A stretch of 42,289 nucleotides of DNA, taken from positions 1 to 42,289 of the forward strand of contig NIVC01004549.1 of NCBI GenBank assembly GCA_002269645.1, given 5' to 3'. Under the pieces are notes generated by a model, which did not search any database, was not told the origin of the DNA, and saw only the letters and a list, made by a program, of their open reading frames with translations. This stretch comes from Macrostomum lignano (lineage: Eukaryota). Every line of letters starts with the position of its first letter. Positions within the stretch are counted from its first letter, which is position 1. Positions 2,095-39,700 of the stretch are shown piece after piece. Both the position numbers and the translations under genes were made by a program.

Positions 2095-5664
<3,570 letters not shown>

Positions 5665-6159: not shown

Positions 6160-6445
6160 CAAAATAGCAGTTGTTTGCTTAAGCAGCCTGTATCACATTG
6201 TTCCGAATTCTTTTTGGTATGTTTTCTCACGAATAATAGCTGCCAGGTTTTTATTCTAATTCTTAACGAGAAAACCATGCACAGCAAGCAGTGGTCACGT
6301 TGAAACTTCAAAGACACCTGACTTGGCCCGCTAGGAGCATCCTGACGTTCCTGTGGGAGGCTGTCCTGCGGGATTCGGCTAAGCGAGAGGCTGTGGTCGG
6401 GGCCGAGGAGCGCGATGTTGTCAGCATAGATCATTTTTACCCGTA
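6160..6445 (-). mobile_element. Degenerate non-LTR reverse transcriptase remnant
   Basis: IYADNIALL resembles the RT YADD motif, followed by QVSLKFQRDHC (GLxFNxxKC-like). Confidence 0.4.
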
Positions 6446-9150: not shown

Positions 9151-9185
9151 GGCCAATTAATGCTACTCGGTTAGTTACTCGGTTA

Positions 9186-15565: not shown

Positions 15566-16114
15566 ATTAAGGGTCTGCAGATGCATTTAATCTATAATCC
15601 TGACGGGTTATGATTTTAAAAAACCACGGCTTCTAAATCCTGTCCTGACCTGCCGCTGCAGACACTGAAGCAAAAGAATTAAGTGCAGCGCCTAAGGCAA
15701 ATTTATTAAAGCAGAGCACTCGCGATGCACAATGCGCTCGCAACCTTCCTCTGGAACGGCCTATTCAGCTCAGCACTCGCAGCACGATAGTCTGGCATGA
15801 TATAAGCTGGCAAAGAGAAAACTGCTTTGAGTTCGTAATCACCCCATTCTACTGATCTCTCGAACCACCCAACTAACTACCCGTATTTCTGCCTCACAGA
15901 CAATAAACAATCCTAGCTAGAATGCAACTCCATCTAGCATATTACTCAAAACAGACCGAGCACAGTACTGCTGGTTGCCCCCGGAAACCGTAGAGACTGG
16001 ACAGCGCTCGCCTCTGCAGGAAGGCTGGCAAAGCAATGTGCTGGCTTGAGAATAGCGAGCGAGCAGAGATAATTACTGCTTGAGGTTGAGCTGAGCTCTC
16101 ATAACCACCGCTCA

Positions 16115-19623
<3,509 letters not shown>

Positions 19624-21131: not shown

Positions 21132-23408
21132 TTAACAGGTTAGCCAGAGCATAAAGTTTTTAAGCACTACAAAAAACTTTCCCGCAGTTTTTCCCTTTCC
21201 AGTAGCCCTTTGAAACTGCCATTTTTCCTGAAGACTCGATTTCAGCCAACTGGGAAGATCTGCTTCCTTCAGTCTCTTGAATATTTCCAGAGTCTGCTCT
21301 AGATTCGAAGAATAAAATGCGGCGACCAGCAGCTCCTTCTCATCCGAGTCCTCTCTCTCAGCCACATCCCGGATCCAGTCCTGGGCGCGCGCTTCTGGAT
21401 CAGTCCGCAGCTCGAGCCGCAAAGCCCATAGCAGAGCGTCAAAGTTCATATAGAAAATAGTTACTGCCTGACAACTGAAGGGGAAAGCACTCCCTCAGAG
21501 CTCCTGTCAGGAATTCGAGTTTCGGTCGCTGGTCGAACTTAAAGCAGAACTTCCACGCCGAGTCGCAGCTCCTCAGATGCCGCATCACGAACTCCACTGT
21601 CGCTTCAGTCGCCGACTTCCCACGAGACCAAGCAATGCCTCTGCTCACCGAGTGACCTGAGTACAAGCTCACGACTCTCTCTGCAGTTCCTCGGTAGCCG
21701 AACTTCAGGCAAGCTAGCGCTCTGAGAGCCTCCCGAGCTGAGAGGGCACAGTCTGGCAGTCTGGCTATCAGCTCTGTAAGCGATTCCTGAGATCGCGGGC
21801 TGCAGTCACTGTGTGAGAGACGAACAAGACACTCTCTCACCACGTCGTAGATCTGATAGTACTCGAGAGCACTGGACTTCGTGATGGGCATCGACCTCAG
21901 ATCCGGCAGAATTTGGAACGGGTGGAAGTAGAATGTGCCTGAGTCGCTCACAGGTCTGAGACTACCGATGAACTGCTGAAGAAGTTGTGGCAGCCGATCT
22001 ACTACTGTTCTCAGTGTGCTCATGATGCCATCCAAATACTGGTCCACTCTCTCCTTGTCTGCACCCTTGAGGTAGATGGCCGCATCGCTGAGAAAGAAAT
22101 GATTCATGATAACCCGAGATTGGTCAGGTGTGTCAGGTGTTTGTCTGTCATGCTCTCGGCTCTTCTCCACACAGTCGAGCAGCATCTGCAGCGACTGTCT
22201 CGTGAGGCTCACGAGGTTCTCCTTCTTCCATTGCTCGACCGGCGTCTCGTCCACCATTCGGAAAGTGACGGTCTTCACGTGGTAGGACTTCAAGCCTTGC
22301 TGATTGAAACCATCCTTGTGACAGATTAACTTCTTGACCAGGTATTTGAGTGTGACAAAAAGTTGACCTTGCAGGGTAGTAAGACTTCGCAGCATCCGGT
22401 TCTCCAGGAAGGTGGTGCTCACGCGGAGCTCTTCGCCCCCTCGGTCAGGAGAGGCTGCGTGCACCACGTGGCAGGGCAATGAAGCCGAGGTGAGAACCTT
22501 CCGAAGGGCCTCCAGCACCGGATGGGGGATGTTCGAGACGCGGTTTGGCAGCAGCGGCGCGATGGGTGGGTAGCGACAGAGACGGCCTGCTGAGACATTG
22601 TCCAGCGCTGGTCTCAGCGTGAATCCGGGTACCGCATCGGCAGGATTGGAGGCTGTAAAAGCGATTCGGTTCCCGGTTGGGCAATAAACAACTTTAAGTC
22701 TGTGGAGTGATATTTTGGACTGATTTGGAAGATTAAAATTCAAATATAATTGTTGCTCATATTTATTACCTACTCAAAAAGACACATATAAATGCATGTT
22801 GCCAATTTCTTTTCTGTGGGTGTTAGCCATTTAATACTCAGCAGGTTCGATACATCCCTAAATGCTGTGCGTTGCAATTACTTCAGACTGAAGGATAGTA
22901 GTCAGGTTCTTGTTTAGATCTACTTACTGAGTTCAGAAATCGTGCATACAGCGATATTTTCTACACCAGTGCTTTACACACGAAAAGCAAACATCTGCAC
23001 TGCCAGAATCTCCAGCAATCGGGTAAAAGAACTAACAGACCATCTCACTTCCGAGAGAACTCACCGAATCCTGAGCACTGAATGTGCCCATTCACCAACT
23101 CGTGCTGCGCCGGAGCTCCATCGCACTCGCACAGGCCTCTCTGGTGGTATTCTCGGCCGGGAATCAAATACATCACATCAATGTCGGAATTGACGTCAGT
23201 TCTGCCGTCCAGTGTCGTCAGACTGTTGCCCCAGCCTTCTGAGTAGCTGCCGACGACAAAAAAGTCATCGTCGTTCATTCGACTTCTTAGAATCTGCTGC
23301 AGGGCATCGGCAGCCGCGCTCTGCAATGCGGCTCGGGATTCGGTGAAGCCTGACTGCTCCCGTGCTGAGTGCAGCTGCTCGCTCAGCTCTGAGTCACTGG
23401 GACTGAAT
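21132..23408 (-). pseudogene. Mab21/cGAS-like receptor (cGLR) nucleotidyltransferase part of an ANK-cGLR gene; exons 23408-23065 and 22652-~21132, frameshift near 21455
   Basis: VVGSYSEG...SDIDVM NTase motif, EELRVSTTFLE, LKYLVK, LKSYHVKT and MNHFF Mab21 motifs. Splice sites join in frame. A 1-bp shift breaks ...NYFYMNFDALLW. Confidence 0.8.
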
Positions 23409-24339
23409 CTAAAATGTAAGTTGTTGGTAAAAAACGGCACTTCTAGAAGGGTTAATTGACTAATTTGTGTAGCATGGGGCAGAACTCCTGAACAGATAAA
23501 AATGTTAATGCAGAAACTTTTTGAATTGCATGGGGAGTCGGAAAAGGTTGACTTAGCGAGGATTTTAGATTTCAGATTCAGCCCTGGAGGTGGGGTGGGG
23601 CAGGCCAGAGATATGGTGGCGGCGGGTCAGAGGTGGGTGGGGCAGGCCGGAGATAGTCCATAGGGTTAAGCGTATAAGACTTGGGGCTGAGTGTCCATGA
23701 CCCAAGGGCAAATGTCTATAGGTTGAGTGTCCAGAGCGAATGTCTACAGGATTTGTTACTGAAAAATGGTCCAATTCCATGACTGCCCATGTATCGAGTG
23801 TCTTTTTATATGGTTGGGAGAGAACTTTTTTGGTCCAACCGTCTTGGTCTGAGTGGTCTAAGTAAAGTAATGTAATGAAAGCAACCTGATTGGCTGACAA
23901 TGCCCAATTATTGGGAATGGCGGCAGATGGGGTCCTGAATTCCAAATTTACATTGCATTCACTCCCGCAAACTCTGTGAACAGTTGCACAGCCTCCGAGC
24001 CATCTCCAGTGTGCCCACCCCACCTCCAGGTCCTCCTCCTCGCTGGTTGGCAAAACAGCGAAGTAGGGCAGTTAGAACTTTTCCTACTAGTGCGCTGAAA
24101 TCAGCAATGTCAAACCCATCTTGACACAGCGTTCTGCAAGCTCTCGTTTTCGACACTGTTTGTATGCTGTTCCTACTTTCAAAACTGCCTCTTAAGGCGG
24201 CTTGCTGGTAAAATTGCACAACTTTTTCAAACGCGTAAAAATCTAACCGAAAAATTATTTTAAACAACATTTTACTAGCGATGCAAATAAAAATCGCCTA
24301 TACAGCACTCTAAACGAGAAGAACGCCACATACTCGCAC

Positions 24340-24787
24340 CTCTCAAGTTCCGACTGATCGATTGGTTCTTCCAAAGCGGATGATTTAGCCACTTCTTGAC
24401 TATCAATATATTCTATTTTGGCGTCAGATACTGCTTTGATAAGTGACTTCACAATTTGATGGTGATCATTCATTAATGCAGCGTCCAGAGGTGACTCGCC
24501 AGTGTTTCGTTGGAGATTGACGTCAGCTAGTGCTTTGATGAGTAAGTTCACAACTTGTTGTTGGTGACCAAAATGTGACGCAATGTAGAGAGGTGACGAA
24601 CCATGAACATTTTCTTGAAGATTAAGGTCAGCTTCTGCTTTGATGAGCGAGTTCACAACTTTGTGGTAGCCATTCTGTGATGCAATGTACAGAGGTGAAC
24701 TACCTTGAATTTGCTGAAGATTGAGGTCAGCCTTTGCTTTTATGAGTGAGCTCACAACTTGGTGGTGACATTCTGTGATGCAATGTA
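24340..24787 (-). pseudogene. 3' part of the ankyrin-repeat exon (repeats ~8-11), interrupted by the Polinton
   Basis: SPLYIASQNG...VVNSLIKA repeats. Donor AG|GTGCGA at 24340/24339 is phase-compatible with the acceptor at 23408. A 1-bp deletion lies near 24770. Confidence 0.8.
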
Positions 24788-25720
24788 ACTACGTAATGTG
24801 CAGTTAGAGCAGGGTTTTGGAGGTGAGGTGGGTGTCAGAGCCAATGCAAATTCAGCGCCTATCTAAATGCACTAGACCTCTTCTAATTGGTCCAGAGTCA
24901 TTATGTGAGATATGCATGTAACTCTCATGTAAATCTAATTGTACATGTAATCAGTGTACACTGTGTCGTACAGAAGCGAGGACCAGTAGTACGCATAATT
25001 AGCGCTCCGCCGTTGTTGTACGCACAAGCGCGCCCAACCCCGCAGCATTGGTGTACGCAGAATTAACTGTCCATATTAACTGTCCATATACCAAAATTGG
25101 CAGAATGGTAGCGCCCACCCACCCCATAACTGTCCATATTACTTGTCCATATATACACCCAAAATTGGCAGAATTGTAGCACCCACCCACCCCATAACTA
25201 TGCATATTTACTGTCCATATATGCACCCAAAATTGGCAGAATTGTAGCACCCACCCACCCCATAACTATCCATATTTACTGTCCATATATGCACCCAAAA
25301 TTGGCAGAATTGTAGCACCCACCCATCCCATAACTATCCATATTTACTGTCCATATATACATCCAAAATTGGCAGAATTGTAGCGCGCCCACCCACCCCA
25401 TAACTGTCCATATTTACTGTCTATATATACATCCAAAATTGGCAGAATTGTAGCGCGCCCACCCACCCCATAACTGTCCATATTTACTGTCCATATATAC
25501 ATCCAAAATTGGCAGAATTGTAGCGCGCCCACCCACCCCATAACTGTCCATATTTACTGTCCATATATACATCCAAAATTGGCAGAATTGTAGCGCCCAC
25601 CCACCCCATAACTGTACGCGCAGAATTAGCATCCAAGAAGATATTCTGTTGCCCCTACAAAATTGGCGGCCCCCGCGCGCGCGCATGATGAGTCAGCCGC
25701 TGTAAATCGCTGCTGTCCAC
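24788..25720 (+). repeat. Left TIR (933 bp) with 8 units of a 68-70-bp tandem repeat (~25066-25615)
   Basis: Reverse complement of 35520-36788 apart from array copy number; unit AAATTGGCAGAATTGTAGC..CCCACCCACCCCATAACT..CCATATTTACTGTCCATATAT. Confidence 0.95.
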
Positions 25721-25889
25721 ACTGTTATATCCACTCCTTCCATATTTCAACCCCTCTAGAATTCAGCCCTCGTCGACTGCACTCCGAGACAATTACGTCA
25801 TCCTCAACCCCTCTCACCCAGAGTCAAATAAGTTTTCAAAAGGCGTATATTTACACAAAAAGCCGGCCGAGCTTTGATACGTATACGAT

Positions 25890-26519
25890 TTATTTAGCAT
25901 ACACAATTGGGTGACGACCCAAAACGTTTGAATAATAGCGAGCAGGAGCATTTTGCAAACAGTTTACAATCAAGTATGAGTAGGGGTCGCGAGTAGCATC
26001 CTCATACGTTTTGACAAAACTTTTTGGATTAGTGGGGACAAGCTGCCTTGCAATATGAGACACTGTGCTGGCATCCCGTACATTGCGGAATAAAACGAGG
26101 TAGTTCGAATTGAGCGACTGAGTTCGGTGCTCCTTACCCTTTGCAAACAGGTTTTGCACAAGATACCAAAGTCGGTACCCGACGTGGGAGACTTTGCGCG
26201 TGAAAAAAGTTGTAAAAGCGCCACTCTTTTCCATGGCATGCATTTGGTCGTCGACGACAAGCAGAATATTTGGTTCAGGGACATATTGTTCAGGGTCAAA
26301 TGTACACGAACGAAAATTTACAGGGTACGGCAATTCAAACAGTTCAGGATCCGGATAGTGGCCAAACCAGTCTACGCGAATCGGCTTCGGATCTTGAAAA
26401 AATTCTTGCCTCAATAGGTTTTTCACAAGTGTGGTCTTGCCGCTTTGAGCCACCCCAGCAAAAATTGCCGACGTTTTGGGGGCAAATTTTAAAGAGCCGG
26501 GGTCTATTGTTTGATACAT
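25890..26519 (-). CDS. DNA packaging ATPase (FtsK/A32-like), 209 aa from MYQT
   Basis: Walker A GVAQSGKT, Walker B LLVVDD, FTRKVSH / QN / RNVRD motifs typical of Polinton ATPases. Confidence 0.9.
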   Translation of the reverse strand: MYQTIDPGSLKFAPKTSAIFAGVAQSGKTTLVKNLLRQEFFQDPKPIRVDWFGHYPDPELFELPYPVNFRSCTFDPEQYVPEPNILLVVDDQMHAMEKSGAFTTFFTRKVSHVGYRLWYLVQNLFAKGKEHRTQSLNSNYLVLFRNVRDASTVSHIARQLVPTNPKSFVKTYEDATRDPYSYLIVNCLQNAPARYYSNVLGRHPIVYAK

Positions 26520-26542
26520 TTTGATAGGCCGCCCAATCATAT

Positions 26543-26992
26543 TTATGGATGATGCTGCTTTATTTGTAGACAGTGATTCTGCACCATCAAGTCGTTCTCA
26601 TAAAGATTTTTGCTATAACAGTCGCGCAATATTTTTTCAATCGGCAGACACTCCAGAAAGTGTTTTTCAGCCACAAATATTACATGAGCCCCGCAGGTCA
26701 CACTTAGCTGATGCTGTACAGGATGCCGGTTCATGGCCACCTCCACAGGGACATACTTTGCGATCCACAACTTTAATAAATCTGGCACAGGATCAATACA
26801 CAAGGGGTCAAAAAATGTCACGCTCTCATCGGCATGAAGACAAATCAAAGCCCAGTGAGTGCCTGGTAGATTGCCAGTGTCAAAGTTAATCACGTATGCA
26901 GCAGGATAAACAGGCTGCGGAATCCTGTCAACTGGTGTTACTCGAACAGGGACAGGCAGTATTAGACGTTCTAATATATCTAGACTATTCAT
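26543..26992 (-). CDS. Adenovirus-like cysteine maturation protease, 149 aa
   Basis: YVINFD...GTHW (His), FFDP (Asp), QHQLSVTCG (Gln/Cys). Confidence 0.92.
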   Translation of the reverse strand: MNSLDILERLILPVPVRVTPVDRIPQPVYPAAYVINFDTGNLPGTHWALICLHADESVTFFDPLCIDPVPDLLKLWIAKYVPVEVAMNRHPVQHQLSVTCGAHVIFVAEKHFLECLPIEKILRDCYSKNLYENDLMVQNHCLQIKQHHP

Positions 26993-27042
26993 ATCGGCAT
27001 GAATATGGCCGTTATTCGGGAATAAAAAAGAGTTGTTTGTTT

Positions 27043-28326
27043 CTACACGTAGTCTAGAATAACCTGACGACCGCGAGTGATTTGCACAGTATTGTCAAAG
27101 TAGCCAAACACCAACACGTTGATTCCTGCGGCCAAGGCAGCAGAAAACTTTATTTGTAGCGTCAGATTCCCTCGCTCGCGAGGCATGCTATGCCCACCCA
27201 GCTCCATGTCGGGCATGAGATTCCAGGCGAAGAAGCAGTAGCCAGCTCCATAGTCGGAATATGATACGTCAATATCCAGGTCCCGATTCATCTTTCCTAG
27301 GCTTTTTAGTAGCATAGCATACTCGCGAGCATAGTTATGAACACCAAATCGAGGAGTAAACGGTTGTCCACACAGACTGACTCCGTCCTTATACAGAGCC
27401 ACACTGTCGGCTCCAAATGGCTCAAAATTAAACGGGTTATGTGTAGCCACACCGTTGTAAGCGCCGCTGTTTACCATGCCAACAACCACAAGTTTAGGCT
27501 TTTGTTCAGGAAATATATTGTTGATTGACATGTCCCGAACACCACCAGCCACTGAAGTATTGTGCACAACAAGTCGCTCAATCGGATAGATTGCATTCTG
27601 TTTGCCTAGTTGTTCTTCAATCTCCAATGCCAGTTGAGGGTTTGCCTTGACGCGGCGCACATGTAGTTTGGCACTCTCGAGTACCAGCCGCGCCTCAACC
27701 CCGTCCGCGTGGTTTTTCAAAACGAAGCCGGAATTGTGCATAGTTAGCGTAATTACCATATCAGTGTATGGCAACAGCATTCGGTCGTTGGTAACAAAAA
27801 ATTCTAAACTAAGAGGTCCATAAAGGTGAAAGGTGCGTGAGTTTGCCGCCATCGCCTTGCGGGCTACAAAACCAGGATTTCCAACCACAGCCATTTGACC
27901 TCCAGCGTCCTTTGCGTAGCCCATCATCCTCAGTTGGTTGGTTTTTGAATCGTGTCCGTAATTCAAACACGTGCGAATATAGGCCTTGTAAGCGTGGTTG
28001 TTATTGCTCGACTCTACGTGGGTCCCGTTGATTGTCAACGTGACGTTTTTAAACATGCTTTCAAGGACGTAATTGACCGGCGCAACATTCGAATCAGCAG
28101 CAAGATTTGTGCCATTAGATTGCCTAACGCGGGCCTTAATCTCGAGGTCAATGTCGTTAAGATCGATAAACGTCTCACCACCAACAATCCTAAATTCGAC
28201 CACGCTGGCATTTTCAACACTGGCAACAGGGTGAACTTCTTCAGTGGTGGCGTTAATTGCAGCAATTTGGTGTGCGCGAGGAGCAAATAGCTCGAATTCC
28301 GACTTTGTACACAGGCACTCAGTCAT
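27043..28326 (-). CDS. Major capsid protein (double jelly-roll, hexon-like), 427 aa
   Basis: KSEFELF start, EFRI...FIDL, VNYVLESMFK, YKAYI, NPFNFEPF, YCFFAWNL and GNLTLQIKF are characteristic Polinton MCP motifs. Confidence 0.9.
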   Translation of the reverse strand: MTECLCTKSEFELFAPRAHQIAAINATTEEVHPVASVENASVVEFRIVGGETFIDLNDIDLEIKARVRQSNGTNLAADSNVAPVNYVLESMFKNVTLTINGTHVESSNNNHAYKAYIRTCLNYGHDSKTNQLRMMGYAKDAGGQMAVVGNPGFVARKAMAANSRTFHLYGPLSLEFFVTNDRMLLPYTDMVITLTMHNSGFVLKNHADGVEARLVLESAKLHVRRVKANPQLALEIEEQLGKQNAIYPIERLVVHNTSVAGGVRDMSINNIFPEQKPKLVVVGMVNSGAYNGVATHNPFNFEPFGADSVALYKDGVSLCGQPFTPRFGVHNYAREYAMLLKSLGKMNRDLDIDVSYSDYGAGYCFFAWNLMPDMELGGHSMPRERGNLTLQIKFSAALAAGINVLVFGYFDNTVQITRGRQVILDYV

Positions 28327-28357
28327 TTTTCTTTCAACAGCGGCTAAGAGTGGTGCT

Positions 28358-28747
28358 CTAATAGACAGATCGATTATTGACGCGGGTTTTTTTATCTATA
28401 TTTATAGAGTCAAAAATATCAGAATGTTGGAGTCTTTTTCTCGTTTTTTTGTTAGTCTTCTTTCTACGCCTTTGACCACCGCCGCTACCTCGTTGTGTGA
28501 CTGTGTCTTTGAAAGCATCTTTAGCTGCCCGGACAGAGTTGCGCAATGCCGCTTCTTTCAAGTTCCCGCCTTGATCGAGTGTGTCGCTAACTGTTGTAGC
28601 TAGGGCTCGTGTTCCGTGGCGAAGAATATTTTTGCCAAAACTCTTTAAAATTGGCAGGGCAAATCGGGCAATGCTGCCAAACAGTCCGTTGCCTCGCTGT
28701 GCACCGGAAAATACCGGTAAAGCTCCTCCGATCAAGATTGAAGGCAT
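28358..28747 (-). CDS. Basic virion core-like protein, 129 aa
   Basis: QRGNG and QRGSG motifs, LIGG protease-type site, amphipathic segment, R/K-rich C-terminus; lies between minor and major capsid genes. Confidence 0.7.
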   Translation of the reverse strand: MPSILIGGALPVFSGAQRGNGLFGSIARFALPILKSFGKNILRHGTRALATTVSDTLDQGGNLKEAALRNSVRAAKDAFKDTVTQRGSGGGQRRRKKTNKKTRKRLQHSDIFDSINIDKKTRVNNRSVY

Positions 28748-28791
28748 ATTGCTGATGAATTGTGGTCTTTTATTTGTGAAAACTTCTTTAT

Positions 28792-29946
28792 TTATAGCTT
28801 AATTTCACGAATGTTGATCGATAAAACAGTTTTACCTCGAAGAATCCGATCCATTAGCTTGCCCATATCGTCACAGATTTGCACCTCAATGGTTTTAAAT
28901 GGGTGCTTCACCAACGGTAAGTATGATGGATTGACAAACTCGTAGTACTCTCGTTCACCGTATACCTTTTCATTCAAAGGAATTGCACCAAGCAGGGGGA
29001 CTTTGACGTCTCCAACAATGGCAGAGTCGACAATGTTTGAATAGATGTACATAGTTTGTACACCATTTGTTAAATCGATTGGTCGTTTAGCGGTCTTTGG
29101 AGTTTCATTAAAAGAATCATCTTCACGAAAGCCGAGAATGGCAGCAAGCTCACCAATTTCAAATAAAATGTTTTCAATGGGTTTGTACTCACACCGGTTC
29201 AGAAAAGGGTTGTAGCTGAATGCATCCACTCTCGTTGCTGGACTTATTGGGAGCTTTGAAACGACGCTCCAAAGCGCTCCATTAACATAATTTAAGAGCT
29301 CATTGGGCGTGCGGTAGAATCCTTTAGCAATCCGCAGTGACGTTCTACTAGGCCAGACACTTTTTTCAAACGTTAGAGTCATGGGACTCTCTATGGAGGA
29401 GGATTCCAATTCTATAGCGAATACTAACGAATTTCTTGGGTTTAGTAAAAAACTCGTTCCTTCGATATTTGATTTATTTCCAGCGTCATCGACCTTTTTA
29501 AACATGCTGCGCACATTACTGGACAGCCTAATGTTCGTACCATACCATGATTTGTTCACAATCGAAATTTGGCCTTCCTGTGAACGCTCAATGCAAATCA
29601 TTGCATTATCGTCTTGCTCATATTTTAGAGCTGCAATGATTGCATCAACCACTTCGTTGGCTGTTGATAGCCCCGCGGGGAGAGAAGCCGACGCAAACTG
29701 CCTATACGTGGAGGCGGGTTTTTCTCTAACTTTAATGTCAATCACTTCATCCTCGGGAGCGTTGGTCAGGACATCAACCATTCGATTATCAGGGACGGTT
29801 TTGAATTCTTTACAAAAGTAGATCCGTTCGATGCAGACTTCATGATTCGGAAAGTGGAGGGTGTCGGGCAAATTAATGTTATAATGCGCTGAATTATTCT
29901 CAGGATAGTGCTTAACGCACGCATTGCTAGGTAGGAAAAGATGCAT
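28792..29946 (-). CDS. Minor capsid protein (penton-like), 384 aa from MHLFLPSN
   Basis: LFLPSN...YPENNS...INLP..L..EVCI N-terminus and MYIYSNIV...VGDVKVPLL...YLPL...IEVQICD C-terminus. Confidence 0.85.
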   Translation of the reverse strand: MHLFLPSNACVKHYPENNSAHYNINLPDTLHFPNHEVCIERIYFCKEFKTVPDNRMVDVLTNAPEDEVIDIKVREKPASTYRQFASASLPAGLSTANEVVDAIIAALKYEQDDNAMICIERSQEGQISIVNKSWYGTNIRLSSNVRSMFKKVDDAGNKSNIEGTSFLLNPRNSLVFAIELESSSIESPMTLTFEKSVWPSRTSLRIAKGFYRTPNELLNYVNGALWSVVSKLPISPATRVDAFSYNPFLNRCEYKPIENILFEIGELAAILGFREDDSFNETPKTAKRPIDLTNGVQTMYIYSNIVDSAIVGDVKVPLLGAIPLNEKVYGEREYYEFVNPSYLPLVKHPFKTIEVQICDDMGKLMDRILRGKTVLSINIREIKL

Positions 29947-29986
29947 TGTAATATACCACACGTTTCGACTGTGCGTGTGTGTGTGT

Positions 29987-31054
29987 TCATCCTTGTCTTA
30001 TATTTATAACTTCCTCAACTGGTACAAATGCATTGAACGACTCGGGATAGCCGCGCCAACTAACGAAATGATGAGCAACACCATTGATGACGACATTGCG
30101 ACGCAGAATTTTGTCTATAACAAAGCGGTCCGGTCGAACCGTCTTTGAAAGTTCATTATAGTAGAATCGACCCTCGATTTGTTCTCCAGATAGGTCGGAA
30201 ATGCGATAAAAATGAGGTGGTCCCGGGCATACTTGAGACACAACGTAAACTTCTTCGCTGTACATATCGTATGCTTCCTTGTCAAAGGCTCGACGAGATT
30301 TTGAAATTCTGACAAAGTCCCCTTTTTTGTAAACTGGTTCATCATATTCAGGATCCTGGTAGAGCTTTTCCCACAATTCTTTTTGGTTGTGCAGACCGAC
30401 ACTCGAAGGTTTCATATCAATAGTAGAGTGTACTGTGTTGTTGTAACTTTTAACCAATATTGGCAAATAGTCAATCCAGCGCCACGTGTTTTTGTGCTCA
30501 AAGTAGCGAGCTAAACGTTTTCGGAGAGTCCTAATCAACCTTTCAGCCATATTTGCCTTGTATACAGAGTTTGTGCTGTACATTTTGATACTGTTGGCTT
30601 TCAGTAAGTTCTGCATGCGATTGTTATAAAACTCGGTACCTCGATCAACGTGTAGATATAAAGGCTTAATAGGGAAGTCTTTGATCATGCTTTCAAAAGC
30701 CTTTGGAGTGTCGCTTTTCAATTTTATTGGCTGACAAAAAGCCAATTTACTAAGCACGTCAATTGCAACTAGAATATATCGATGACCATCATTCCATTGT
30801 TCGTATCGTGACATGTCCATCAAATCCGCTTGCACAGTTTCCATGAAGCCTCCTGACATTACTTTTCCGGTTCGGAATTTTCTTTTAACCCTCTTGTGCC
30901 GGGTGTAGCTCGATTGGGTCTTCAGCCATTCGTCGGTTTGGCGTCTCGTCAGGGAGGGGGCCAGCCGTTTGGCCTCCTGATATACACGGGCAGCATTTGT
31001 AAAAGCGGCGTCTCCCTGTTCGTACACTCTCCGAAGAGCGGTTTTCACCCTCAT
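29987..31054 (-). CDS. Retroviral-like DDE integrase with C-terminal chromodomain, 355 aa
   Basis: QADLMDM (D), HVDRGTEF (D), MAERLIRTL (E); chromodomain IDKILR...VSWRGYPESFNAFV. Confidence 0.95.
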   Translation of the reverse strand: MRVKTALRRVYEQGDAAFTNAARVYQEAKRLAPSLTRRQTDEWLKTQSSYTRHKRVKRKFRTGKVMSGGFMETVQADLMDMSRYEQWNDGHRYILVAIDVLSKLAFCQPIKLKSDTPKAFESMIKDFPIKPLYLHVDRGTEFYNNRMQNLLKANSIKMYSTNSVYKANMAERLIRTLRKRLARYFEHKNTWRWIDYLPILVKSYNNTVHSTIDMKPSSVGLHNQKELWEKLYQDPEYDEPVYKKGDFVRISKSRRAFDKEAYDMYSEEVYVVSQVCPGPPHFYRISDLSGEQIEGRFYYNELSKTVRPDRFVIDKILRRNVVINGVAHHFVSWRGYPESFNAFVPVEEVINIRQG

Positions 31055-31187
31055 TCGCAACTAGAGTCGATGCACAGCATGAGTAATTACACTTGAACTC
31101 CACAGACGGTTTGTCTGAGCAAAGCTTTGAAGTTACAGCTGCGGCACCCATGATCCAAAAACAGATTATAAATCATGAAAATGATTT

Positions 31188-31841
31188 CTATTTATAGTTT
31201 TTTAACGTCTCGTATTTTACTGCTGGTTTCTGCCGCCTCTTTGGTTCGCGAAGTTGGTATGAAGCATGCCTGTAGGCATCGCTGCCACGATCTTCAAATT
31301 TTTTAACTTCATTCAGGCCACTGGCTCGGTCTTTGTGGAAGTCGTTGTGGAAATCACTAGTTCCAATTGCTTGCTCGACTAAAAAATCGTCTCGATCAGG
31401 ATCCGTGCCGACTTCTTTTTTCACACTGACTTCTTCTTGTTGGCGTCGCCCTAGTAGAGCTTTTGCAATATCTGCCTCTTCAGCCAGGGCCCAAAAAGCG
31501 GTACTATATTTTGGGCTTGGGCGGTCGCGCCTTTCATTCGATGTAATCTTTTTCAGTAGATCGAAAATATTGCTTCCTGGCCAGGTTTTTCCATCAAATA
31601 CAATTTCCCACGACTTGTTGAACTCCAAATTCGGGTATCTTTCTGTCAACATGTCCCAAACTCGTTGTTGTCGTTCAGGAAAACGATTACTCTTCTTTTG
31701 CTTGATCTGACTTAGTTTATTTTGGAGTTGAGTGTTGTATTCAATGAGTTTTTCATATTCTGTTTTAGATGCAATTTCTCGGGGTGCGCCTTGACTCAGT
31801 CTATTAAATTCTTCTTCTGGCACAACAACGTATTTATTCAT
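31188..31841 (-). CDS. Conserved-type Polinton hypothetical protein, 217 aa from MNKYVVVPEEEF
   Basis: M.K.V.VP.E.F start seen in Maverick accessory proteins; ATG lies 1 nt after the corrected stop of the upstream gene. Confidence 0.6.
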   Translation of the reverse strand: MNKYVVVPEEEFNRLSQGAPREIASKTEYEKLIEYNTQLQNKLSQIKQKKSNRFPERQQRVWDMLTERYPNLEFNKSWEIVFDGKTWPGSNIFDLLKKITSNERRDRPSPKYSTAFWALAEEADIAKALLGRRQQEEVSVKKEVGTDPDRDDFLVEQAIGTSDFHNDFHKDRASGLNEVKKFEDRGSDAYRHASYQLREPKRRQKPAVKYETLKNYK

Positions 31842-31842
31842 T

Positions 31843-32198
31843 TTAGCGACCGAGTAGTCCACCAAACAGGCTTGATATTAGCGGTGCAGCAACAGATGCA
31901 AGGATGGGTAAAAACCACCGACTTGAGGGTTCGAGAGAAGCATATTCTTCTTCCTATTTATAGACAATTTTGTGTCTGCCAATTCACGCAACGATCTTCT
32001 GTATCGCTTTAATCGCAGATACTGTTTCGGAGAAAGATCAATATTTCCCCGGAGTACGTTGTGACTCAATTCACAGAGACAATGAATCAGTTCCTTGCCT
32101 GCACCTCGAATAATTGCCCGCCGAAGAGTGGGACGGGCTTTGGCGAGCTCTGCGAGCTCGCCGCGACAAGAACATAGTCTGGAGATTCCGTTTGTCAT
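31843..32198 (-). CDS. Polinton protein with predicted protease-released amphipathic C-terminal peptide; 1-bp frameshift at 31910-31914
   Basis: ELIHCLCELSHNVLRGNI...LKRYRRSLRELA core. Restoring one base in the A5 run gives QVGG-FLPILASVAAPLISSLFGGLLGR*. Confidence 0.7.
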
Positions 32199-32699
32199 TT
32201 TGTTTAGCACAAAGATGTTGGTTGCAGTGCATCGCAATTTATGCACAATATATTTATAGACAAGTTTCATAGCAGCATTACGATTGTACACCAATTTCAG
32301 TGCAGTGGTAATTGACAATAAAATTACACAACATTTGTGACAGCACTAAAAATCCAAAAGCGACTGTGAGGAGATGTTGCTAGGTGTCGAGACGGGTACA
32401 AAACAAACAATGGAGACACGTACCGATTGTGGAACTTCTTAAATTTTACAATGTCTGCTACGGCAGGATCTGTGTTATCAGAGGGTCATCAATCAAATAT
32501 TTTGACAGTTAAAAATCGAAGCGGGGTCAATCAACCCCGCATTACTTTTGTTGCTGCGTGGTGGAACGTGCCGAGTTGGGATTTTGTTGCTTAGGGGTGT
32601 GGCGATAAAATTGCTGCTGCCGCAGGGCAATAAATCAAAAGTTTTTGACAGTGGTCAGAAGCGGTCATTTTCATTGCAGATTTGGCTCAATTTCATTCA

Positions 32700-32971
32700 G
32701 CCAGCGGGGTGCAGCACGAGTGCATTCCGCAGGCCATCCCGAGCGTGGTTGAGCAAGTCAGGCATGGGTAAAACTACCGTGTTTGGGCGGTCCACGCCGC
32801 AGCAGCCGGAGACCACTGATGAGGTTGACACACCTGGTGTGTACTTGGAGATCTCGAACGCTGGACCCTCCTGGTGCGACTACCTCATCAGTGCTCTCCA
32901 GCTGGTGCAGCGGGGCCCGCACAAACACGGTAGTTGGTCTGTGGGATGCATTCGTGCTGCACCCCGCTGGC
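32700..32971 (-). ncRNA. Candidate long hairpin RNA locus (imperfect palindrome)
   Basis: Arms are reverse-complementary about GAGATCTC (32848-32855); a CTATAAATA box lies 60 bp upstream on the minus strand. Confidence 0.45.
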
Positions 32972-33111
32972 ATGGGTGAGCTTGAAAGATGTTTGTTGCA
33001 GTGTACTGCAATTTGTGCATGATATATTTTATTTATAGACAAGTTTCATAGCAGCTTGTACGTACATACAAATTTTGTTAAAACAGTAAAGTTACGCAAT
33101 AGCTATATGGA

Positions 33112-33591
33112 TTAGACATACAAAACGCTAGTCACATGATCGTACATTTGACAGAGCTCTTTAAAGTTTCGTATACCAAGGAAAACAAGGCGACCATTCT
33201 TTCCGCATAATAAACATTTAGCATTGCGAAATGGAGACTTTATTACTATTCCATTGAAAACTTCGCACTCCCACTTCACCCATTGGGACCCTGAGTATGC
33301 AATTTGGAAAAAATTTGGCCATCTGTCTACTTCAGCGCGGTAAGTACTAGTGGTAACAACAACAGAAATTGGTTTACATTGAGGAAAAAGACGCAAAACT
33401 TGGTTGACTGAGCGACAACCGAATACAATTGCAGACAAAGAACGCTGAAAAAAGTTTATTGTACACTTTCCTATCCTCAAATTGATAAGAGCTCTTGGCC
33501 GGCGAAATGTCCGTGCGCTCGCCCAGTCCAAGTCAGGCATGCAGCTCCATTTCGCGCAAAACACTCGGTTCACGCACTCGACGTTCTGCAA
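33112..33591 (-). CDS. Divergent TATA-binding protein (TBP)-like protein
   Basis: LQNV; [15 protein letters not shown]...[19 protein letters not shown]...[15 protein letters not shown] resemble both TBP repeats. The frame starts at TTG; the first ATG is at 33540. Confidence 0.7.
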   Translation of the reverse strand: [159 protein letters not shown]

Positions 33592-34346
33592 GTAGATTTT
33601 TCGGCAGTTTTCTTTACTTTCGTATCCTTCTTGGGGGCTTTCGGTCGCTTCTTTGATTCGTTGGCTGCTACTACTTTCGATTGATGCTGTCGCTTTCTGG
33701 CCTGATTTTTAGGCACCTTTGGCTGCTTCTCCTTGACAAGCTTTGATGGTTTTTTTGCTTTCTTGCTTACTTTCTTGGAGCCTACCTTGATTTTTGGAGG
33801 TGGCGTCCAATAGCAACGGTCGAATGCCTGTTTGGCTTCTTCGACAAACTGTAGCTGTTGAATTTTTGGCATTGCGGTCAAAACAGCGCCTCGAATCACG
33901 GCCGTGTCGAGAGTAAACAGAATCCTGTAATAGCCGCTCTTGTTTTTGTAATCCTCTACAGGCAGTCCGTTTTGGTCGTACATTTTAAAGTCGTGAGCCA
34001 GCCCAAACGCTGCACTGTCGCCTCCAAACGCTGCACTGTCGCCTCCAAACGCTGGGTTGTAGCCCAGAAGAGCTAGACTTTCACTGGAAAGGTGCTCCGC
34101 CACAGTGTTGAAAGTGTAGGGTATGCAGCTCTCAATGTGTTTTTGTGCAATGATGATGAATTCGCGACCTTCGTTGTCAGTACGCACACCTTTGACAATC
34201 AAAACAGGGACCGCATTGGCCAAGTAGAGAGGCCCCTGTTCGTCATATTCAATGTCAAACGTTTCAACCCCGTTGAAGCTCGGACCTCGCGGTTTGAGTG
34301 CCAGCAGCTCTCGCTTGACGCAGTTGAAGTCTTGCACTGTCTCCAT
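33570..34346 (-). CDS. Hypothetical protein, 258 aa: possible OB-fold SSB plus Lys-rich tail
   Basis: Intact ORF with a TATA box 62 bp upstream; beta-rich YRILFTLD...PKIQQLQF end; tandem AAFGGDS duplication; K/P-rich C-terminal ~75 aa. Confidence 0.55.
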   Translation of the reverse strand: METVQDFNCVKRELLALKPRGPSFNGVETFDIEYDEQGPLYLANAVPVLIVKGVRTDNEGREFIIIAQKHIESCIPYTFNTVAEHLSSESLALLGYNPAFGGDSAAFGGDSAAFGLAHDFKMYDQNGLPVEDYKNKSGYYRILFTLDTAVIRGAVLTAMPKIQQLQFVEEAKQAFDRCYWTPPPKIKVGSKKVSKKAKKPSKLVKEKQPKVPKNQARKRQHQSKVVAANESKKRPKAPKKDTKVKKTAEKSTCRTSSA

Positions 34347-34407
34347 GTCTCTTGTCTGTTTAGAAAAATTTGCAGGTACGGGAGCTTGCAGATGCTCCGG
34401 GCTGGTG

Positions 34408-34415
34408 CTTATATA
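34408..34415 (-). promoter_or_regulatory. TATA box TATATAAG (class 1) upstream of ORF258
   Basis: GGGTATATAAGCACCAGCCC, duplicated at 35067-35074. Confidence 0.6.
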
Positions 34416-34440
34416 CCCGAGAGTCTCAATAAGTTTTGTT

Positions 34441-34968
34441 TTAATTACACGATAACGAGCTTTTTACGGTGTTGTCGTTGTCGAGGATTCCAGAAAAAAT
34501 GAACCTTTTGTTCCTATTTTCGGGTGCTGGCGTTGGAGGCGTGCTGAAATCCTTGCTCCAAGTTGATGGTAGTTCAAGCTTTGGCGGCCTGTTTCTCTTG
34601 TGCTTTGGCAGCCAAATCTTTTGTTGCTCCTCCCACGACGGATTATACAGATCTTGATGGTTCCGAAAACGTATTTTTTGGCGATGCTCCTCACTTAGTA
34701 TCGGAGCCAGTAATCTCTCCATTCGTGCTAAATCAGCTTTGAACCTCATTTTGTCCCGTAGTTGCTCATTTATCCTGGCTGCTGCGTAGTCTTGGCTGTC
34801 GTAGGGACCTTGATCAATTTCCTCGACCTTGGCATTGAAGGTGACTAATCGCTCAGAAATCGGTTTGCTGTGGCAAATGCACAACCAGTCCGCAGATTTT
34901 TTCAACGTCTTATATTCGTCTTTTTCCTCGTTCGATAATAGAGGGTAGTCTCTGGAAATCCAGCTCAT
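34441..34968 (-). CDS. Hypothetical protein, 175 aa
   Basis: Intact ATG-TAA ORF with a TATA box upstream; a decayed paralogous copy lies at 35100-35270. Confidence 0.55.
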   Translation of the reverse strand: MSWISRDYPLLSNEEKDEYKTLKKSADWLCICHSKPISERLVTFNAKVEEIDQGPYDSQDYAAARINEQLRDKMRFKADLARMERLLAPILSEEHRQKIRFRNHQDLYNPSWEEQQKIWLPKHKRNRPPKLELPSTWSKDFSTPPTPAPENRNKRFIFSGILDNDNTVKSSLSCN

Positions 34969-35023
34969 TTCTTGTCAAACACTGCGGGATGTTATTTGAG
35001 CTTAGAAAACTGCTGAGAAGCCG

Positions 35024-35270
35024 AGAAAAGTTTGCAGGTACGGGGGCTTGGTGCTCTGGGCTGGTGCTTATATACCCGAGAGTCTCAATAAGTTTTGTTT
35101 TAATTACACGATAACAAGCTTTTTACGGAGTTGTCGTTATCGAGGATTCCAGTAAAATGAACATTTTGTACCTATTTTTGGTACTGGCGTTGGAAGCGTG
35201 TTGAAATCCTTGCTCCAAGTTGTTGGCAGTTCATGCTTTGGTAACCAAAATTGCTTGTCAAACACTGCGT
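35024..35270 (-). pseudogene. Internally deleted duplicate of the ORF175 cassette
   Basis: 35024-35241 matches 34362-34584; encodes WLPKH...ELPTTWSKDF; CGCAGTGTTTGACAAG is shared with the ORF175 leader. Confidence 0.7.
35067..35074 (-). promoter_or_regulatory. TATA box TATATAAG (class 1) upstream of ORF175
   Basis: Second copy within a ~220-bp direct repeat. Confidence 0.6.
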
Positions 35271-35519
35271 TTTCCACATGATTTTTAATTGAACTTGGTG
35301 AATTTAGAAAACGGCTGAGAATCCGAATTTTCTTTATTTATGGTTTGCTGTCTGACAAAATTGACCTGGCATCTTATTAAACGAGAATATTTCATGCATA
35401 GAATTTAGTGTTTTTAGACCTTGATGACGTGTCTGGCTATAAATTTAGCCTTGTGTCTCGACCGGGTTGTTGCGTAACCCTGCTGCAGGTAGCTATAGCG
35501 AGCCGCGCAGGGCAGAGGG

Positions 35520-36788
35520 GTGGACAGCAGCGATTTACAGCGGCTGACTCATCATGCGCGCGCGCGGGGGCCGCCAATTTTGTAGGGGCAACAGAATATC
35601 TTCTTGGATGCTAATTCTGCGCGTACAGTTATGGGGTGGGTGGGCGCTACAATTCTGCCAATTTTGGATGTATATATGGACAGTAAATATGGACAGTTAT
35701 GGGGTGGGTGGGCGCGCTACAATTCTGCCAATTTTGGATGTATATATGGACAGTAAATATGGACAGTTATGGGGTGGGTGGGCGCGCTACAATTCTGCCA
35801 ATTTTGGATGTATATATGGACAGTAAATATGGATAGTTATGGGATGGGTGGGTGCTACAATTCTGCCAATTTTGGGTGCATATATGGACAGTAAATATGG
35901 ATAGTTATGGGGTGGGTGGGTGCTACAATTCTGCCAATTTTGGGTGCATATATGGACAGTAAATATGCATAGTTATGGGGTGGGTGGGTGCTACAATTCT
36001 GCCAATTTTGGGTGTATATATGGACAAGTAATATGGACAGTTATGGGGTGGGTGGGCGCTACCATTCTGCCAATTTTGGTATATGGACAGTTAATATGGA
36101 CAGTTATGGGTGGGTGGGCGCGCTACAATTCTGCCAATTTTGGATGTATATATGGACAGTAAATATGGACAGTTATGGGGTGGGTGGGCGCGCTACAATT
36201 CTGCCAATTTTGGATGTATATATAGACAGTAAATATGGACAGTTATGGGGTGGGTGGGCGCTACAATTCTGCCAATTTTGGATGTATATATGGACAGTAA
36301 ATATGGACAGTTATGGGGTGGGTGGGTGCTACAATTCTGCCAATTTTGGGTGCATATATGGACAGTAAATATGGATAGTTATGGGGTGGGTGGGTGCTAC
36401 AATTCTGCCAATTTTGGGTGCATATATGGACAAGTAATATAGACAGTTATGGGGTGGGTGGGCGCTACCATTCTGCCAATTTTGGTATATGGACAGTTAA
36501 TATGGACAGTTAATTCTGCGTACACCAATGCTGCGGGGTTGGGCGCGCTTCTGCGTACAACAACGGCGGAGCGCTAATTATGCGTACTACTGGTCCTCGC
36601 TTCTGTACGACACAGTGTACACTGATTACATGTACAATTAGATTTACATGAGAGTTACATGCATATCTCACATAATGACTCTGGACCAATTAGAAGAGGT
36701 CTAGTGCATTTAGATAGGCGCTGAATTTGCATTGGCTCTGACACCCACCTCACCTCCAAAACCCTGCTCTAACTGCACATTACGTAGT
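35520..36788 (-). repeat. Right TIR (1269 bp) with 13 units of the 68-70-bp repeat
   Basis: Reverse complement of the left TIR plus five extra units. Confidence 0.95.
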
Positions 36789-37696
36789 AATGTAGAGAGG
36801 TGACTCGCCAGTGTTTCGTTGATGATTGACGTCAGCTTGTGCTTTGATGAGAGAGGTCACAACTCGGAGGTGACCATTCTCTGAGGCAATGTTGAGAGGT
36901 GAGTAGCCATTGACTTCTTGAAGATTGACGTCAGCTTGTGCTTTGATGAGTGAGTTTACAACTTGGTGGTGACCATTCTGTGATGCAATGTAGAGAGGTA
37001 TCTCACCAGTGTTTCGTTGAAGATTAACATCAGCTTGTGCTTTGATGAGTGAGTTCACAACTTGGTGGTGACCATTCTGTGATGCAATTAATGTACAGAG
37101 GTGAGCAGCCATCGTCTTCTTGAAGGCTGACGTCAGCTTGTACTTTGATGAGTGAGTTCACAACTTGATGGAGACCATTCTCAGATGCAATGTAGAGAGG
37201 TGACTCGCCAGTGTTTATTTGTTGATTGATGTCAGCTTGTGCTTTAATGAGTAAGTTCACAACTTGGTGGTGACCATTCTGTGTTGCAATGTAGAGAGGT
37301 GAACCGCCTTGGATTTGTTGAAGATTGACGTCAGCTTGTGCTTTGATGAGTGAGGTCACAACTTGATGATGACCAAAAAGTGATGCAATGTAGAGAGGTG
37401 TCTCGCCAGTATTTCGTTGAAGATTGACGTCAGCTTGGGCTTGAATGAAGATCCCAACAATTTTTACTTTTCCCAATTCACATGCAAAATGAAGCGGTGA
37501 CATTGATGCTGATGAGCCTATCAACGTTAGAAGCTTTCTGCAGGTATCGTGAAATTTTTGTTGCATTTTCGAACATAATGGCTTCCAGGATCTCTTGTTC
37601 AGTCACATCGAGGCTCTCGCTTTGGCTTTCGGACCTGCCGATGGTCTGCATTAGAACTGCTGCAATCGCTGTCAGGGTTCTTAAAAGAGCTTCCAT
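36789..37696 (-). pseudogene. 5' part of the ANK-cGLR gene (start and ankyrin repeats 1-8), frameshifts near 37515 and 37088
   Basis: MEALL... start, then MSPLHFACELG and 33-aa SPLYIASxNGHHQVVxSLIKAQADVN repeats. The sequence continues seamlessly at 24787 once the element is removed. Confidence 0.8.
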
Positions 37697-38582
37697 TTTG
37701 ACGCGGTATCGGTGCTGCGAAATGCACAGAGCGCCGCTTTTTGCTGGTATTTATCTATTTTTGCTCATTTGCGTCACAATTGTCTACCATTGGCAGCGCT
37801 GCCACGGGCCAATTGAAATGAATGAGGCTTGTGTCGGTTTATCTGTTTATTTATCTGTCTATAGTGTCACAGACATACAGTCAGCCTGACGCTAGTTACC
37901 GCCTTATTTAGGAGGGCTGTTCGCAAAGAAGCTGTTGTATGCAGCTTACACGCACGAGCAAAAATATTTTGGATCACAAGAGTAAGAATATTTTTTTTTA
38001 TTATAGGCAGGGGGGTTGTGTGCACCCTGGCGCACTTTAAGCGACATAGGCACACAACCGGCGAGAGGCATTACTGCCCGACTGCCCGACTCCCCTGAGC
38101 AGGCATACAAGCGCGCACGAGTAAGAATATAAGAATATATAAAATAATATTTGCAATTGCATGCGTACCGACAAATGTATGCTGCTCGTACACACACTAT
38201 CTATTTAATATACACGCAGCTGTACGTACGAGTCATTTATCAGTTAGTTTGTACTCGTATACGATCACGGCTTGTATCTAAATTGTGCATTTCAATATTT
38301 CGTAAATGCACTTTCTTGAAAATGCACTGTCCATAAAGCTCTCTATACATTCTCGAAATTCTATCTTCTCGAAATTCCACTTTCTTGAAACGTCAATTTC
38401 TTGAAAACCAAAATCATCAGTCCATTTTGCTTTCTCGAACATATTCGAAGTCAAACTCTAATACGCAACAAGTGCCTTTAGTTGATTTTGAAATTGCGAG
38501 CACATGTCATACATTACAGCGTATGAATTTATGAGATACATATGGCATGAATACATTTACATGTAGTTACGACTGTATGGCC

Positions 38583-38908
<326 letters not shown>

Positions 38909-38909
38909 A

Positions 38910-39700
38910 TACACCTCTCAGCCTCGACAGCTCAGCATAATTCACTCCGTAAGCCTTGACATCTAAAAGCAATTCCCCCGTAAGCCTTTGCGACATCTAA
39001 GCAATCCCCCGTAAGTCTTAACTTGACATCCAAGCAACCCATGAAGCGAAAGTCCTCAAGGCCCATGGTCAGAAGAGCGAAAGTGTCTTGATACCTGAAT
39101 GTCTTTAGCCGACAGCTGATGTCACTAAGGTGGGGTACGTCTGGAGCCTGCTGGACCTTAGGGAGGGCACCACTTGTCTCTGCTCCGGCAAAATACAGCG
39201 GCCGGGTGGTTGTATGCGCCTTGCATACTTGCAACATAGACAACATTTTAGCCTTAGGGGTCGCGTCTGACTTTCTGGTAGATTCTGTAGACAATTTTGG
39301 TGGCACTGGAGCCGGGACAAACCTGACCAAACTGGCCGTGCTGCCTGCATATCAGCAGTCAATTGTCGATGATTATACTTTTGCATCGCGTCCTTGGTGC
39401 TCAGCTCCCAGGTGTCCGTGCTCAATTGGATGTTCTCCTCAGTCCTCTTGGTTAGCATGGCCGGTCGAATAAAAGTTTTGAGTACGTTGTTCTTCTTTGC
39501 GTTGCAATTCTTTTTGGGGTGGTCTGCCTGCAATTTTCAACGTGAAAGAAGCAGTGCAGAAATGCAAAATGCTTACTGCATACGGTCGGAAAATGATCCG
39601 AGGTCAATACGGTCCGAGGTCACTGCAATGATTCTGTAATGACTTGAGAACAAAGTCTTGATTAGCTATAGCGCTGGGAAGTGGCTCCCGAGTGGCAGAC
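38910..39700 (-). mobile_element. Possible highly degraded LINE 3' remnant ending in the (TCTA)n array
   Basis: LGSHF and KTFIRPAML resemble RT C-terminal motifs; weak. Confidence 0.25.

Follow-up and report, generated by a model that had tools for sequence, protein, structure and literature searches.

A fold-back copy of host UAP56/DDX39B coding sequence in a Maverick-type element of Macrostomum lignano as a candidate hairpin-RNA gene

According to our sequence comparisons, both arms of a fold-back hairpin carried by a Maverick/Polinton-type element in the flatworm Macrostomum lignano consist of one coding-sequence fragment of host UAP56/DDX39B, an RNA-export helicase, that was doubled as an inverted repeat. 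The reading we consider best, at about an even chance, is a virus-borne hairpin RNA (hpRNA) that would damp host ddx39b through the host's own RNAi. The window analysed is the whole stretch of 42,289 nucleotides of contig NIVC01004549.1 (assembly GCA_002269645.1). A first-pass annotation, made from its letters, had offered a long hairpin RNA or small-RNA precursor, a decoy resembling adenovirus VA RNA and a DNA cruciform as options, of which the first now appears the likeliest. Its argument from gene slot and promoter is supported, while it overlooked the UAP56/DDX39B origin of the arms, to which a host contig, PDB matches and tblastn all point; with this origin the hairpin has a definite candidate target, which lowers the odds of a DNA cruciform and of a generic decoy.

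Results

The coordinates of the element and of the hairpin slot are collected in Table 1.

Table 1. Features of the element and of its hairpin slot (positions in the window)
Feature	Position	Strand	Basis or remark
Maverick/Polinton-type endogenous element, 12,001 bp, polymerase-less	24788..36788	-	terminal inverted repeats, target-site duplication, gene set
Left terminal inverted repeat, internal 68-70-bp tandem array	24788..25720	.	98-99% identity
Putative packaging ATPase	25890-26540	-	ORF; name by recall
Putative adenain-like protease	26543-26992	-	ORF; name by recall
Double jelly-roll major capsid protein, 427 aa	27043..28326	-	structure model, Foldseek
Putative small basic protein	28358-28747	-	ORF; name by recall
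Putative minor capsid	28792-29946	-	ORF; name by recall
rve integrase (retroviral-type), 355 aa	29987..31054	-	Pfam PF00665, PHROG
Small conserved viral gene	31878..32200	-	C-terminus frame-broken here relative to homologues
Promoter/leader cassette copy 2, upstream of small conserved viral gene	32205..32278	-	83% to copy 1
Non-coding spacer, 420 bp	32280..32699	.	unstructured (z 0.29)
Left arm	32700..32844	-	predicted 3' arm, antisense to UAP56/DDX39B; human residues ~69-110; PDB matches, tblastn, host contig
Bulge, 36 nt	32736..32771	-	antisense donor sequence, partnerless in other arm
Left-arm 11-nt gap relative to host	near 32748-32753	-	host contig comparison
Terminal loop, ~18 nt	32845..32862	-	folding, pair map
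Right arm	32863..32971	-	5' arm of predicted RNA, sense to UAP56/DDX39B; lacks 47 donor nt; tblastn, pair map
Promoter/leader cassette copy 1	32985..33056	-	TATA-like motif starts 33037; putative promoter
Two unnamed ORFs, 258 and 175 aa	33570..34968	-	each behind duplicated TATA-containing segment
Right terminal inverted repeat, longer tandem array	35520..36788	.	repeat comparison

The imperfect inverted repeat reported earlier for 32700-32971 was borne out by RNA folding of both strands and by a pair map. The minimum free energy is -179.7 kcal/mol on the minus strand (z -13.3) and -196.5 kcal/mol on the plus strand (z -14.7), with 0 of 200 shuffles equally stable in either case, and in a 300-nt sliding scan the hairpin is the minimum-energy stretch of the element core. 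Positions 32700-32735 pair with 32971-32936 and 32772-32844 with 32935-32863, which gives an outer stem of 36 bp, a left-arm bulge, an inner stem of 73 columns and the loop. The perfect 20-bp outer stem is present as described, the bulge of one arm, previously put at about 35 nt, measures 36 nt, and the arms extend as proposed except that 32845-32847 are unpaired, hence a loop of some 18 nt. The 109 paired columns hold 18 single mismatches, none of them adjacent (16.5% divergence); they do leave short runs, as the claimed spacing of 3-6 nt implies, along with two longer perfect runs (14 and 12 bp). As to the supposed lack of codon periodicity, 3 of 4 mismatches of the outer stem are synonymous third positions in the donor-gene frame, while in the next segment 6 of 7 fall at first or second positions. 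The hairpin has no family match in Rfam (best E 2.8).

Our sequencing evidence consists of assembled contigs of four (X3, X6, X11, X17) among the 24 listed runs; it takes in neither the small-share runs X20-X24 nor the uncovered bins that adjoin the hairpin in X17 and X11. Contigs crossing the loop occur in all four (0, 1, 1 and 3 differences), which rules out an assembly artefact.

The stretch also folds as DNA (z -13.9), which favours an element acting at the DNA level (cruciform or origin), and the spacing between the upstream TATA-like motif and an ATG at 32973 is normal, which favours a short peptide gene. We nevertheless hold this pair of readings to be scarcely probable, since most copies of the element replicate without the module and the 71-aa ORF, in which the frame shifts with respect to UAP56, matches nothing in Pfam. 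This ORF, for which the first-pass annotation had considered a conserved protein, is a frame-broken read of the UAP56 fragment, and we rejected the conserved-peptide reading on Pfam and frame grounds.

The origin of the arms is indicated most directly by a contig of 1104 nt, distinct from the hairpin contigs, which matches 32703-32824 (122 nt) with 14 differences and an 11-nt gap, and whose loose ends, read by eye, continue in frame as UAP56/DDX39B. Its depth is 883 in X17, and the same letters reach 2397 in X11, 37 in X3 and 96 in X6; this abundant contig is probably the published Mlig-ddx39b transcript. The supplement of the Mlig-ddx39b paper gives three DDX39B transcripts, and three motifs of the arm region were absent from the supplements (primers) of PMC11075559 and PMC5173321. 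At the protein level, the 11 best PDB matches of the first left-arm frame are all DDX39A/B chains (SGVQHECIPQAIP against SEVQHECIPQAIL, E 0.23), and the second frame matches the same chain (1t6n) 8 residues downstream (E 1.8). The two frames, each searched alone, thus follow human UAP56 in order, at residues 38-50 and 59-78 of 1t6n, and the 24 nt of protein set against 13 nt of window between them amount to the same 11-nt gap as in the host contig. The right-arm frame alone has no PDB match.

All 60 UAP56-type metagenome proteins match the hairpin by tblastn (E 2e-6 to 4e-3, median 1.6e-4), which is the best match in the window for 59 of them and for 2 of 60 reversed proteins; the 60 loci were retrieved with an arm-derived motif and so are not an unbiased set, and for one the identity as DDX39B was confirmed (E 9e-185). 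Of these 60 loci, 0 showed a fold-back across the motif and 3 had inverted repeats elsewhere; those of L024 (1-237) and L049 (137-232) lie at or near contig ends, off the UAP56 motif, and are possibly assembly artefacts. The host-specific motif had no match among metagenome contigs.

The captured stretch of the donor comprises about 140 nt, presumably the Q-motif/motif I region of UAP56, less 47 nt in the right arm and 11 nt in the left. After 32824 a DNA-run contig continues exactly as the presumed RNA runs do, hence there is no intron at this place and captures from mRNA and from DNA look alike. Abundant host-type contigs of X11 align to each arm separately (32701-32754 and 32935-32971), which suggests several host versions of ddx39b. 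The arms might mirror two host ddx39b copies; 3 of the 4 outer-stem differences between them are synonymous.

As had been proposed, the hairpin occupies a gene slot behind a putative promoter/leader cassette. A TATA-like motif lies 66 nt upstream of it, and such a motif also precedes most viral genes. The two cassettes, which had been called nearly identical, turn out to be similar (83% over 71 nt); they flank an optional module of 780 bp. The motif, TATAAATA/TATATAAG, was chosen post hoc from inspected upstream regions and occurs 9 times on the minus and 0 times on the plus strand of the element core, one each standing 49-142 nt upstream of 8 of 10 viral genes and the ninth before the hairpin. 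From these counts and spacings we conclude that the hairpin is placed like a gene. Transcription would proceed on the minus strand and yield the sense arm, the loop and the antisense arm, in which the bulge would be exposed as unpaired antisense sequence. Against this strand, no AATAAA lies downstream of the hairpin on it within the slot, and all 4 outer-stem mismatches become G.U pairs on the plus strand, which on the predicted minus strand they do not. A plus-strand transcript, with its better fold and an outer helix of 36 bp unbroken by virtue of these pairs, was ranked lower because none of the 9 TATA-like motifs lies on that strand.

Parts of the spacer recur in element copies without the arms. 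Its segments (~32459-32503 and others) reach 2-10 times the depth of the arms and have loose ends leading into other sequence, from which it follows that the spacer is common to related copies whose cargo is different or absent. The spacer also contains a repeated motif of its own, at about 32488 and 32629, and a short stem, seemingly perfect, near 32521-32540. A second internal duplication with a TATA-like motif (34362-34584 and 35024-35241, 90%) indicates that promoter duplication recurs in the element.

The element has terminal inverted repeats whose outer 304 nt differ at no more than 2 positions, a 6-bp target-site duplication (24782-24787 and 36789-36794) and all of its genes on the minus strand. 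The capsid model (pLDDT 75) matches in Foldseek the PBCV-1 capsid at E 6.5e-16 and the mavirus and Sputnik capsids at E ~1e-11, and the integrase matches PF00665 at E 1.7e-7 with 31.8 bits, just below the cut-off of 32.6, together with PHROG transposases. Long terminal inverted repeats, target-site duplication, double jelly-roll capsid and, just below cut-off, rve integrase are those of Mavericks/Polintons, whereas the protein-primed family B polymerase is missing: neither Pfam nor PHROG gave a match and no ORF of the element exceeds 427 aa. With no polymerase gene and no room for one, we regard it as Maverick-like and not as a canonical autonomous member; it may rely on a helper or on host replication. 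It combines a full capsid module and an integrase without DNA polymerase in multiple copies (4-9x host-gene contig depth).

ATPase, protease, small basic protein and minor capsid carry the names that we assume from motifs and gene order; in Pfam and PHROG their ORFs gave no match above cut-off, with a weak P-loop at E 0.01. The 258-aa protein has 4 homologues and no Atlas match. Scans of viral contigs yielded 0 related loci in 5 of 5 cases.

The insertion lies in a host ankyrin-repeat gene (ANK + Mab-21 family), next to which lies a Mab-21 ORF; among the 24 homologues of this ORF, 21 bear the name Macrostomum lignano (best 88%). The interrupted gene (21439-24787 and 36789-39533) belongs to an expanded Macrostomum ANK + Mab-21 family, possibly innate-immune; Mab-21 has, we assume, a cGAS-like fold. 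Near 31197 and 31909 the reading frames of this copy are broken relative to its siblings, which marks it as an ageing insertion. Elsewhere in the window there are a multi-kilobase 4/8-bp microsatellite with extreme GC skew (~16000-19700) and, within 3426-9156, a coding-looking minisatellite (3886-5400), a cytochrome P450 across two ORFs (Pfam p450) and a host exon that we take to be alcohol dehydrogenase-like.

The hairpin module is missing from most copies of the element. In the DNA runs X3 and X6 the element has a depth of ~162 and ~830 and the hairpin contig 21.4 and 68.8, and a joint 32263>33044, which skips 780 nt from cassette to cassette, reaches 99.8 and 648. The module has 0.6-0.7 of the depth of the host-gene contig and perhaps represents one locus. 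A family at greater distance (~77% identical, depth 144.5 in X3) likewise lacks a match to the arms. In the same runs, contigs over 33285-33705 show that such families, ~77-87% identical, number at least two. The arms have diverged (18/109) far beyond the outer terminal repeats (at most 2/304, under 1%; p 1.5e-9), and so have the cassettes (7/67 columns, p 1.3e-4); this copy differs by ~2.5-3% from the main family. The fold-back is consequently much older than this insertion and has long survived in a mobile lineage between direct repeats able to delete it. Either the main family lost it or this lineage acquired the module by a swap.

It would be logical to ask whether such a module is only neutral cargo: a template switch during replication or repair would have captured part of ddx39b, which was then doubled by a snap-back and has decayed ever since, while recombination between the two cassettes removed it from most lineages. 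The minority status of the module agrees with this, as do the scattered transversion-rich mismatches, the deletions of 11 and 47 nt, the drift from the host sequence, the broken genes of this copy and the finding of near-identical hairpin-bearing copies only, which offer no covariation, may all stem from one laboratory line and would then not be independent. Plant transposons often take up fragments without clear gain in copy number (10.1101/777037). This explanation leaves unaccounted for the exact position in a compact genome, 66 nt downstream of a TATA-like motif, the survival over the time in which the arms diverged by 16.5% and the terminal repeats by under 1%, the absence of adjacent mismatches and a donor that is an RNA-export and stem-cell factor; we consider it rather unlikely.

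Signs of selection on the hairpin are mixed. Placement, age and the absence of adjacent mismatches (p 0.035, post hoc) speak for it, against which stand the divergence from the host and the excess of transversions (11 of 18 arm mismatches, whereas differences between copies of the element give 54 of 157; p 0.02-0.04, post hoc). The antisense arm is ~88.5% identical to the host contig, apart from the 11-nt gap. At 32786 and 32791, both middle-stem cases among the differences listed, the host agrees with the sense arm and the antisense arm deviates. At 32700 and 32789 neither arm agrees with the host, and at 32707 and 32776 neither encodes the near-invariant residue of UAP56; the changes at these four sites could predate the duplication.

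As for expression, there is a weak hint. Loop-crossing contigs were present in both presumed RNA runs (depth 5.45 and 4.33), although contigs give no strand, start or level, and X11 and X17 are RNA by guess, a guess supported by the depth of the element relative to the host gene, 0.004-0.007 in these two runs and 4-9 in X3 and X6. Relative to neighbouring element contigs the hairpin stands at 0.57 and 0.66 in the presumed RNA runs and at 0.13 and 0.08 in DNA, a poor measure from hand-picked contigs. The X11 contig extends beyond the predicted start site. In the presumed RNA runs the hairpin contig has 0.2-0.5% of the depth of the host contig; such scarcity is to be expected of diced, highly paired precursors (PMC10317233).

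Abundance matters also for the decoy, in which an imperfect duplex would bind or saturate Dicer, ADAR or cGAS-like sensors of dsRNA and the donor would be incidental. VA RNA is a Pol III transcript, very abundant, that inhibits dsRNA sensors. Single spaced mismatches and the short helices of the minus strand (longest 20 bp) would suit a binder that is a poor substrate, and the host has a large ANK + Mab-21 family. The depth of the hairpin contig, a weak measure, is low where a decoy should be abundant, the TATA motif upstream is of Pol II type, whereas VA RNAs are products of Pol III, and the choice of donor gene is left unexplained, which together make a decoy improbable.

Discussion

We propose for the hpRNA reading the following course of events. 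A flatworm Maverick-type virus would have taken ~140 nt of host UAP56/DDX39B coding sequence and doubled it as a fold-back, a step documented by anatomy and origin, and set it behind a duplicate of one viral TATA promoter, thus gaining an accessory non-coding gene. The promoter motif, with the weak RNA hint, points to a minus-strand transcript of sense arm, loop and antisense arm. Its Dicer products, or direct pairing by the unpaired antisense bulge, might partly knock down ddx39b mRNA in the cells in which the element has to be active, those of the germ line and the stem cells. Reduced UAP56 would weaken the export of host mRNA and possibly of piRNA precursors, which would serve as counter-defence or host shut-off. 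Intronless viral mRNAs may themselves need UAP56. We may even suggest, more tentatively and at clearly less than an even chance, that the stolen UAP56/DDX39B piece is a hairpin-RNA gene through which host RNAi lowers the export of mRNA and piRNA precursors in stem and germ cells, and that the 780-bp slot may be an exchangeable cassette, filled in other families with other host-derived hairpins.

Several published findings form the setting of this proposal. Macrostomum lignano has Dicer, Argonaute and piRNA pathways, the piRNAs silencing transposons (PMC4604429), and a single soak in dsRNA gives >85% knockdown (PMC11075559). Expression of ddx39 is enriched in gonads and neoblasts, and after its knockdown no worm survived beyond 3 weeks (PMC5173321). 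The export of mRNA requires UAP56, and so does the production of piRNAs from clusters in Drosophila (10.1101/596171); in flatworms this piRNA role is a candidate by analogy. For DDX39A, restriction of alphaviruses and promotion of VSV have been described (PMC11494928).

Lethality cuts both ways. That carriers of the hairpin exist in spite of it counts against a strong constitutive silencing, and it could explain, by an admittedly ad hoc argument, attenuation and loss: the imperfect match and the loss from most integrated copies would fit a function costly to the integrated copy, because full knockdown of ddx39b kills the worm. The same essentiality of ddx39b (PMC5173321) could be exploited in another way, if the carried piece of an essential gene acted as a hostage that makes piRNA or siRNA silencing costly, so that the host moderates its attack; such a model is described for maize transposons (10.1101/777037), and piRNAs do silence transposons in this worm (PMC4604429). 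For such a shield a single-copy fragment would suffice, a fold-back invites dicing and the copies bearing the module are the rare ones, hence we consider it very improbable.

If the hpRNA reading is true, an essential-gene hpRNA in a virus-like element would reverse the logic of Drosophila hpRNAs and represent RNA-based counter-defence, since the hpRNAs known so far are host loci, many directed against selfish genes, and the cargo known from Mavericks codes for proteins. It would also make UAP56/TREX a restriction point for Mavericks and offer a probe of the piRNA role of UAP56 beyond flies. RNAi works very efficiently in the host, a laboratory model for which small-RNA libraries have been published and the lethal ddx39b phenotype is standard, and the coexistence of element copies with and without the module would aid a direct test.

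Among known systems, viral miRNAs and adenovirus VA RNA are structured non-coding RNAs of DNA viruses that act on host expression or dsRNA sensing. They are short hairpins or Pol III RNAs, whereas here we have a 272-nt copy of host coding sequence without a match in Rfam. In the open-access literature, work on captured fragments in transposons and on Macrostomum Polintons included, we found no report of a host-derived hairpin gene in a virus or Maverick, which is not proof of absence.

Cargo of nematode Mavericks (wasp, krma; 10.1101/2022.07.12.499685) is likewise host-derived, GC-rich, variable and near the integrase end; in our element the hairpin has 62% GC and the core 44%. That cargo is protein-coding, whereas ours is a frame-broken, non-coding fold-back in an element without a polymerase gene. 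Maize Pack-MULEs, Helitrons and Sireviruses similarly capture exon fragments, with possible siRNA cross-talk with the donor (10.1101/777037); in maize, host silencing yields the siRNAs as a by-product, while here the hairpin is built behind a promoter motif. In Arabidopsis siRNA854 from Athila represses UBP1b, that is, a small RNA of a mobile element acts on a host gene in trans (PMC3276544), for which our hairpin is a candidate; siRNA854 arises from the retrotransposon's own sequence once activated, as against a captured host fragment in a dedicated inverted repeat of an animal DNA virus-like element.

In its build our hairpin resembles the hpRNAs of Drosophila (Nmy, Tmy, hp58, hpRNA1; PMC10317233 and PMC12941216), which are likewise long fold-backs formed by inverted duplication of a presumed target piece and have their own transcription unit, which in our case is predicted, in a setting of genetic conflict. 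Judged by its letters, it shares two features with hpRNAs: it is a long inverted repeat, and it is apparently derived from and complementary to a host mRNA. Drosophila hpRNAs are Dicer-dependent and repress their targets, which for ours is a prediction; they are also host loci, many of them acting against selfish genes, whereas here the carrier is mobile and virus-like and the gene matched is an essential one of the host.
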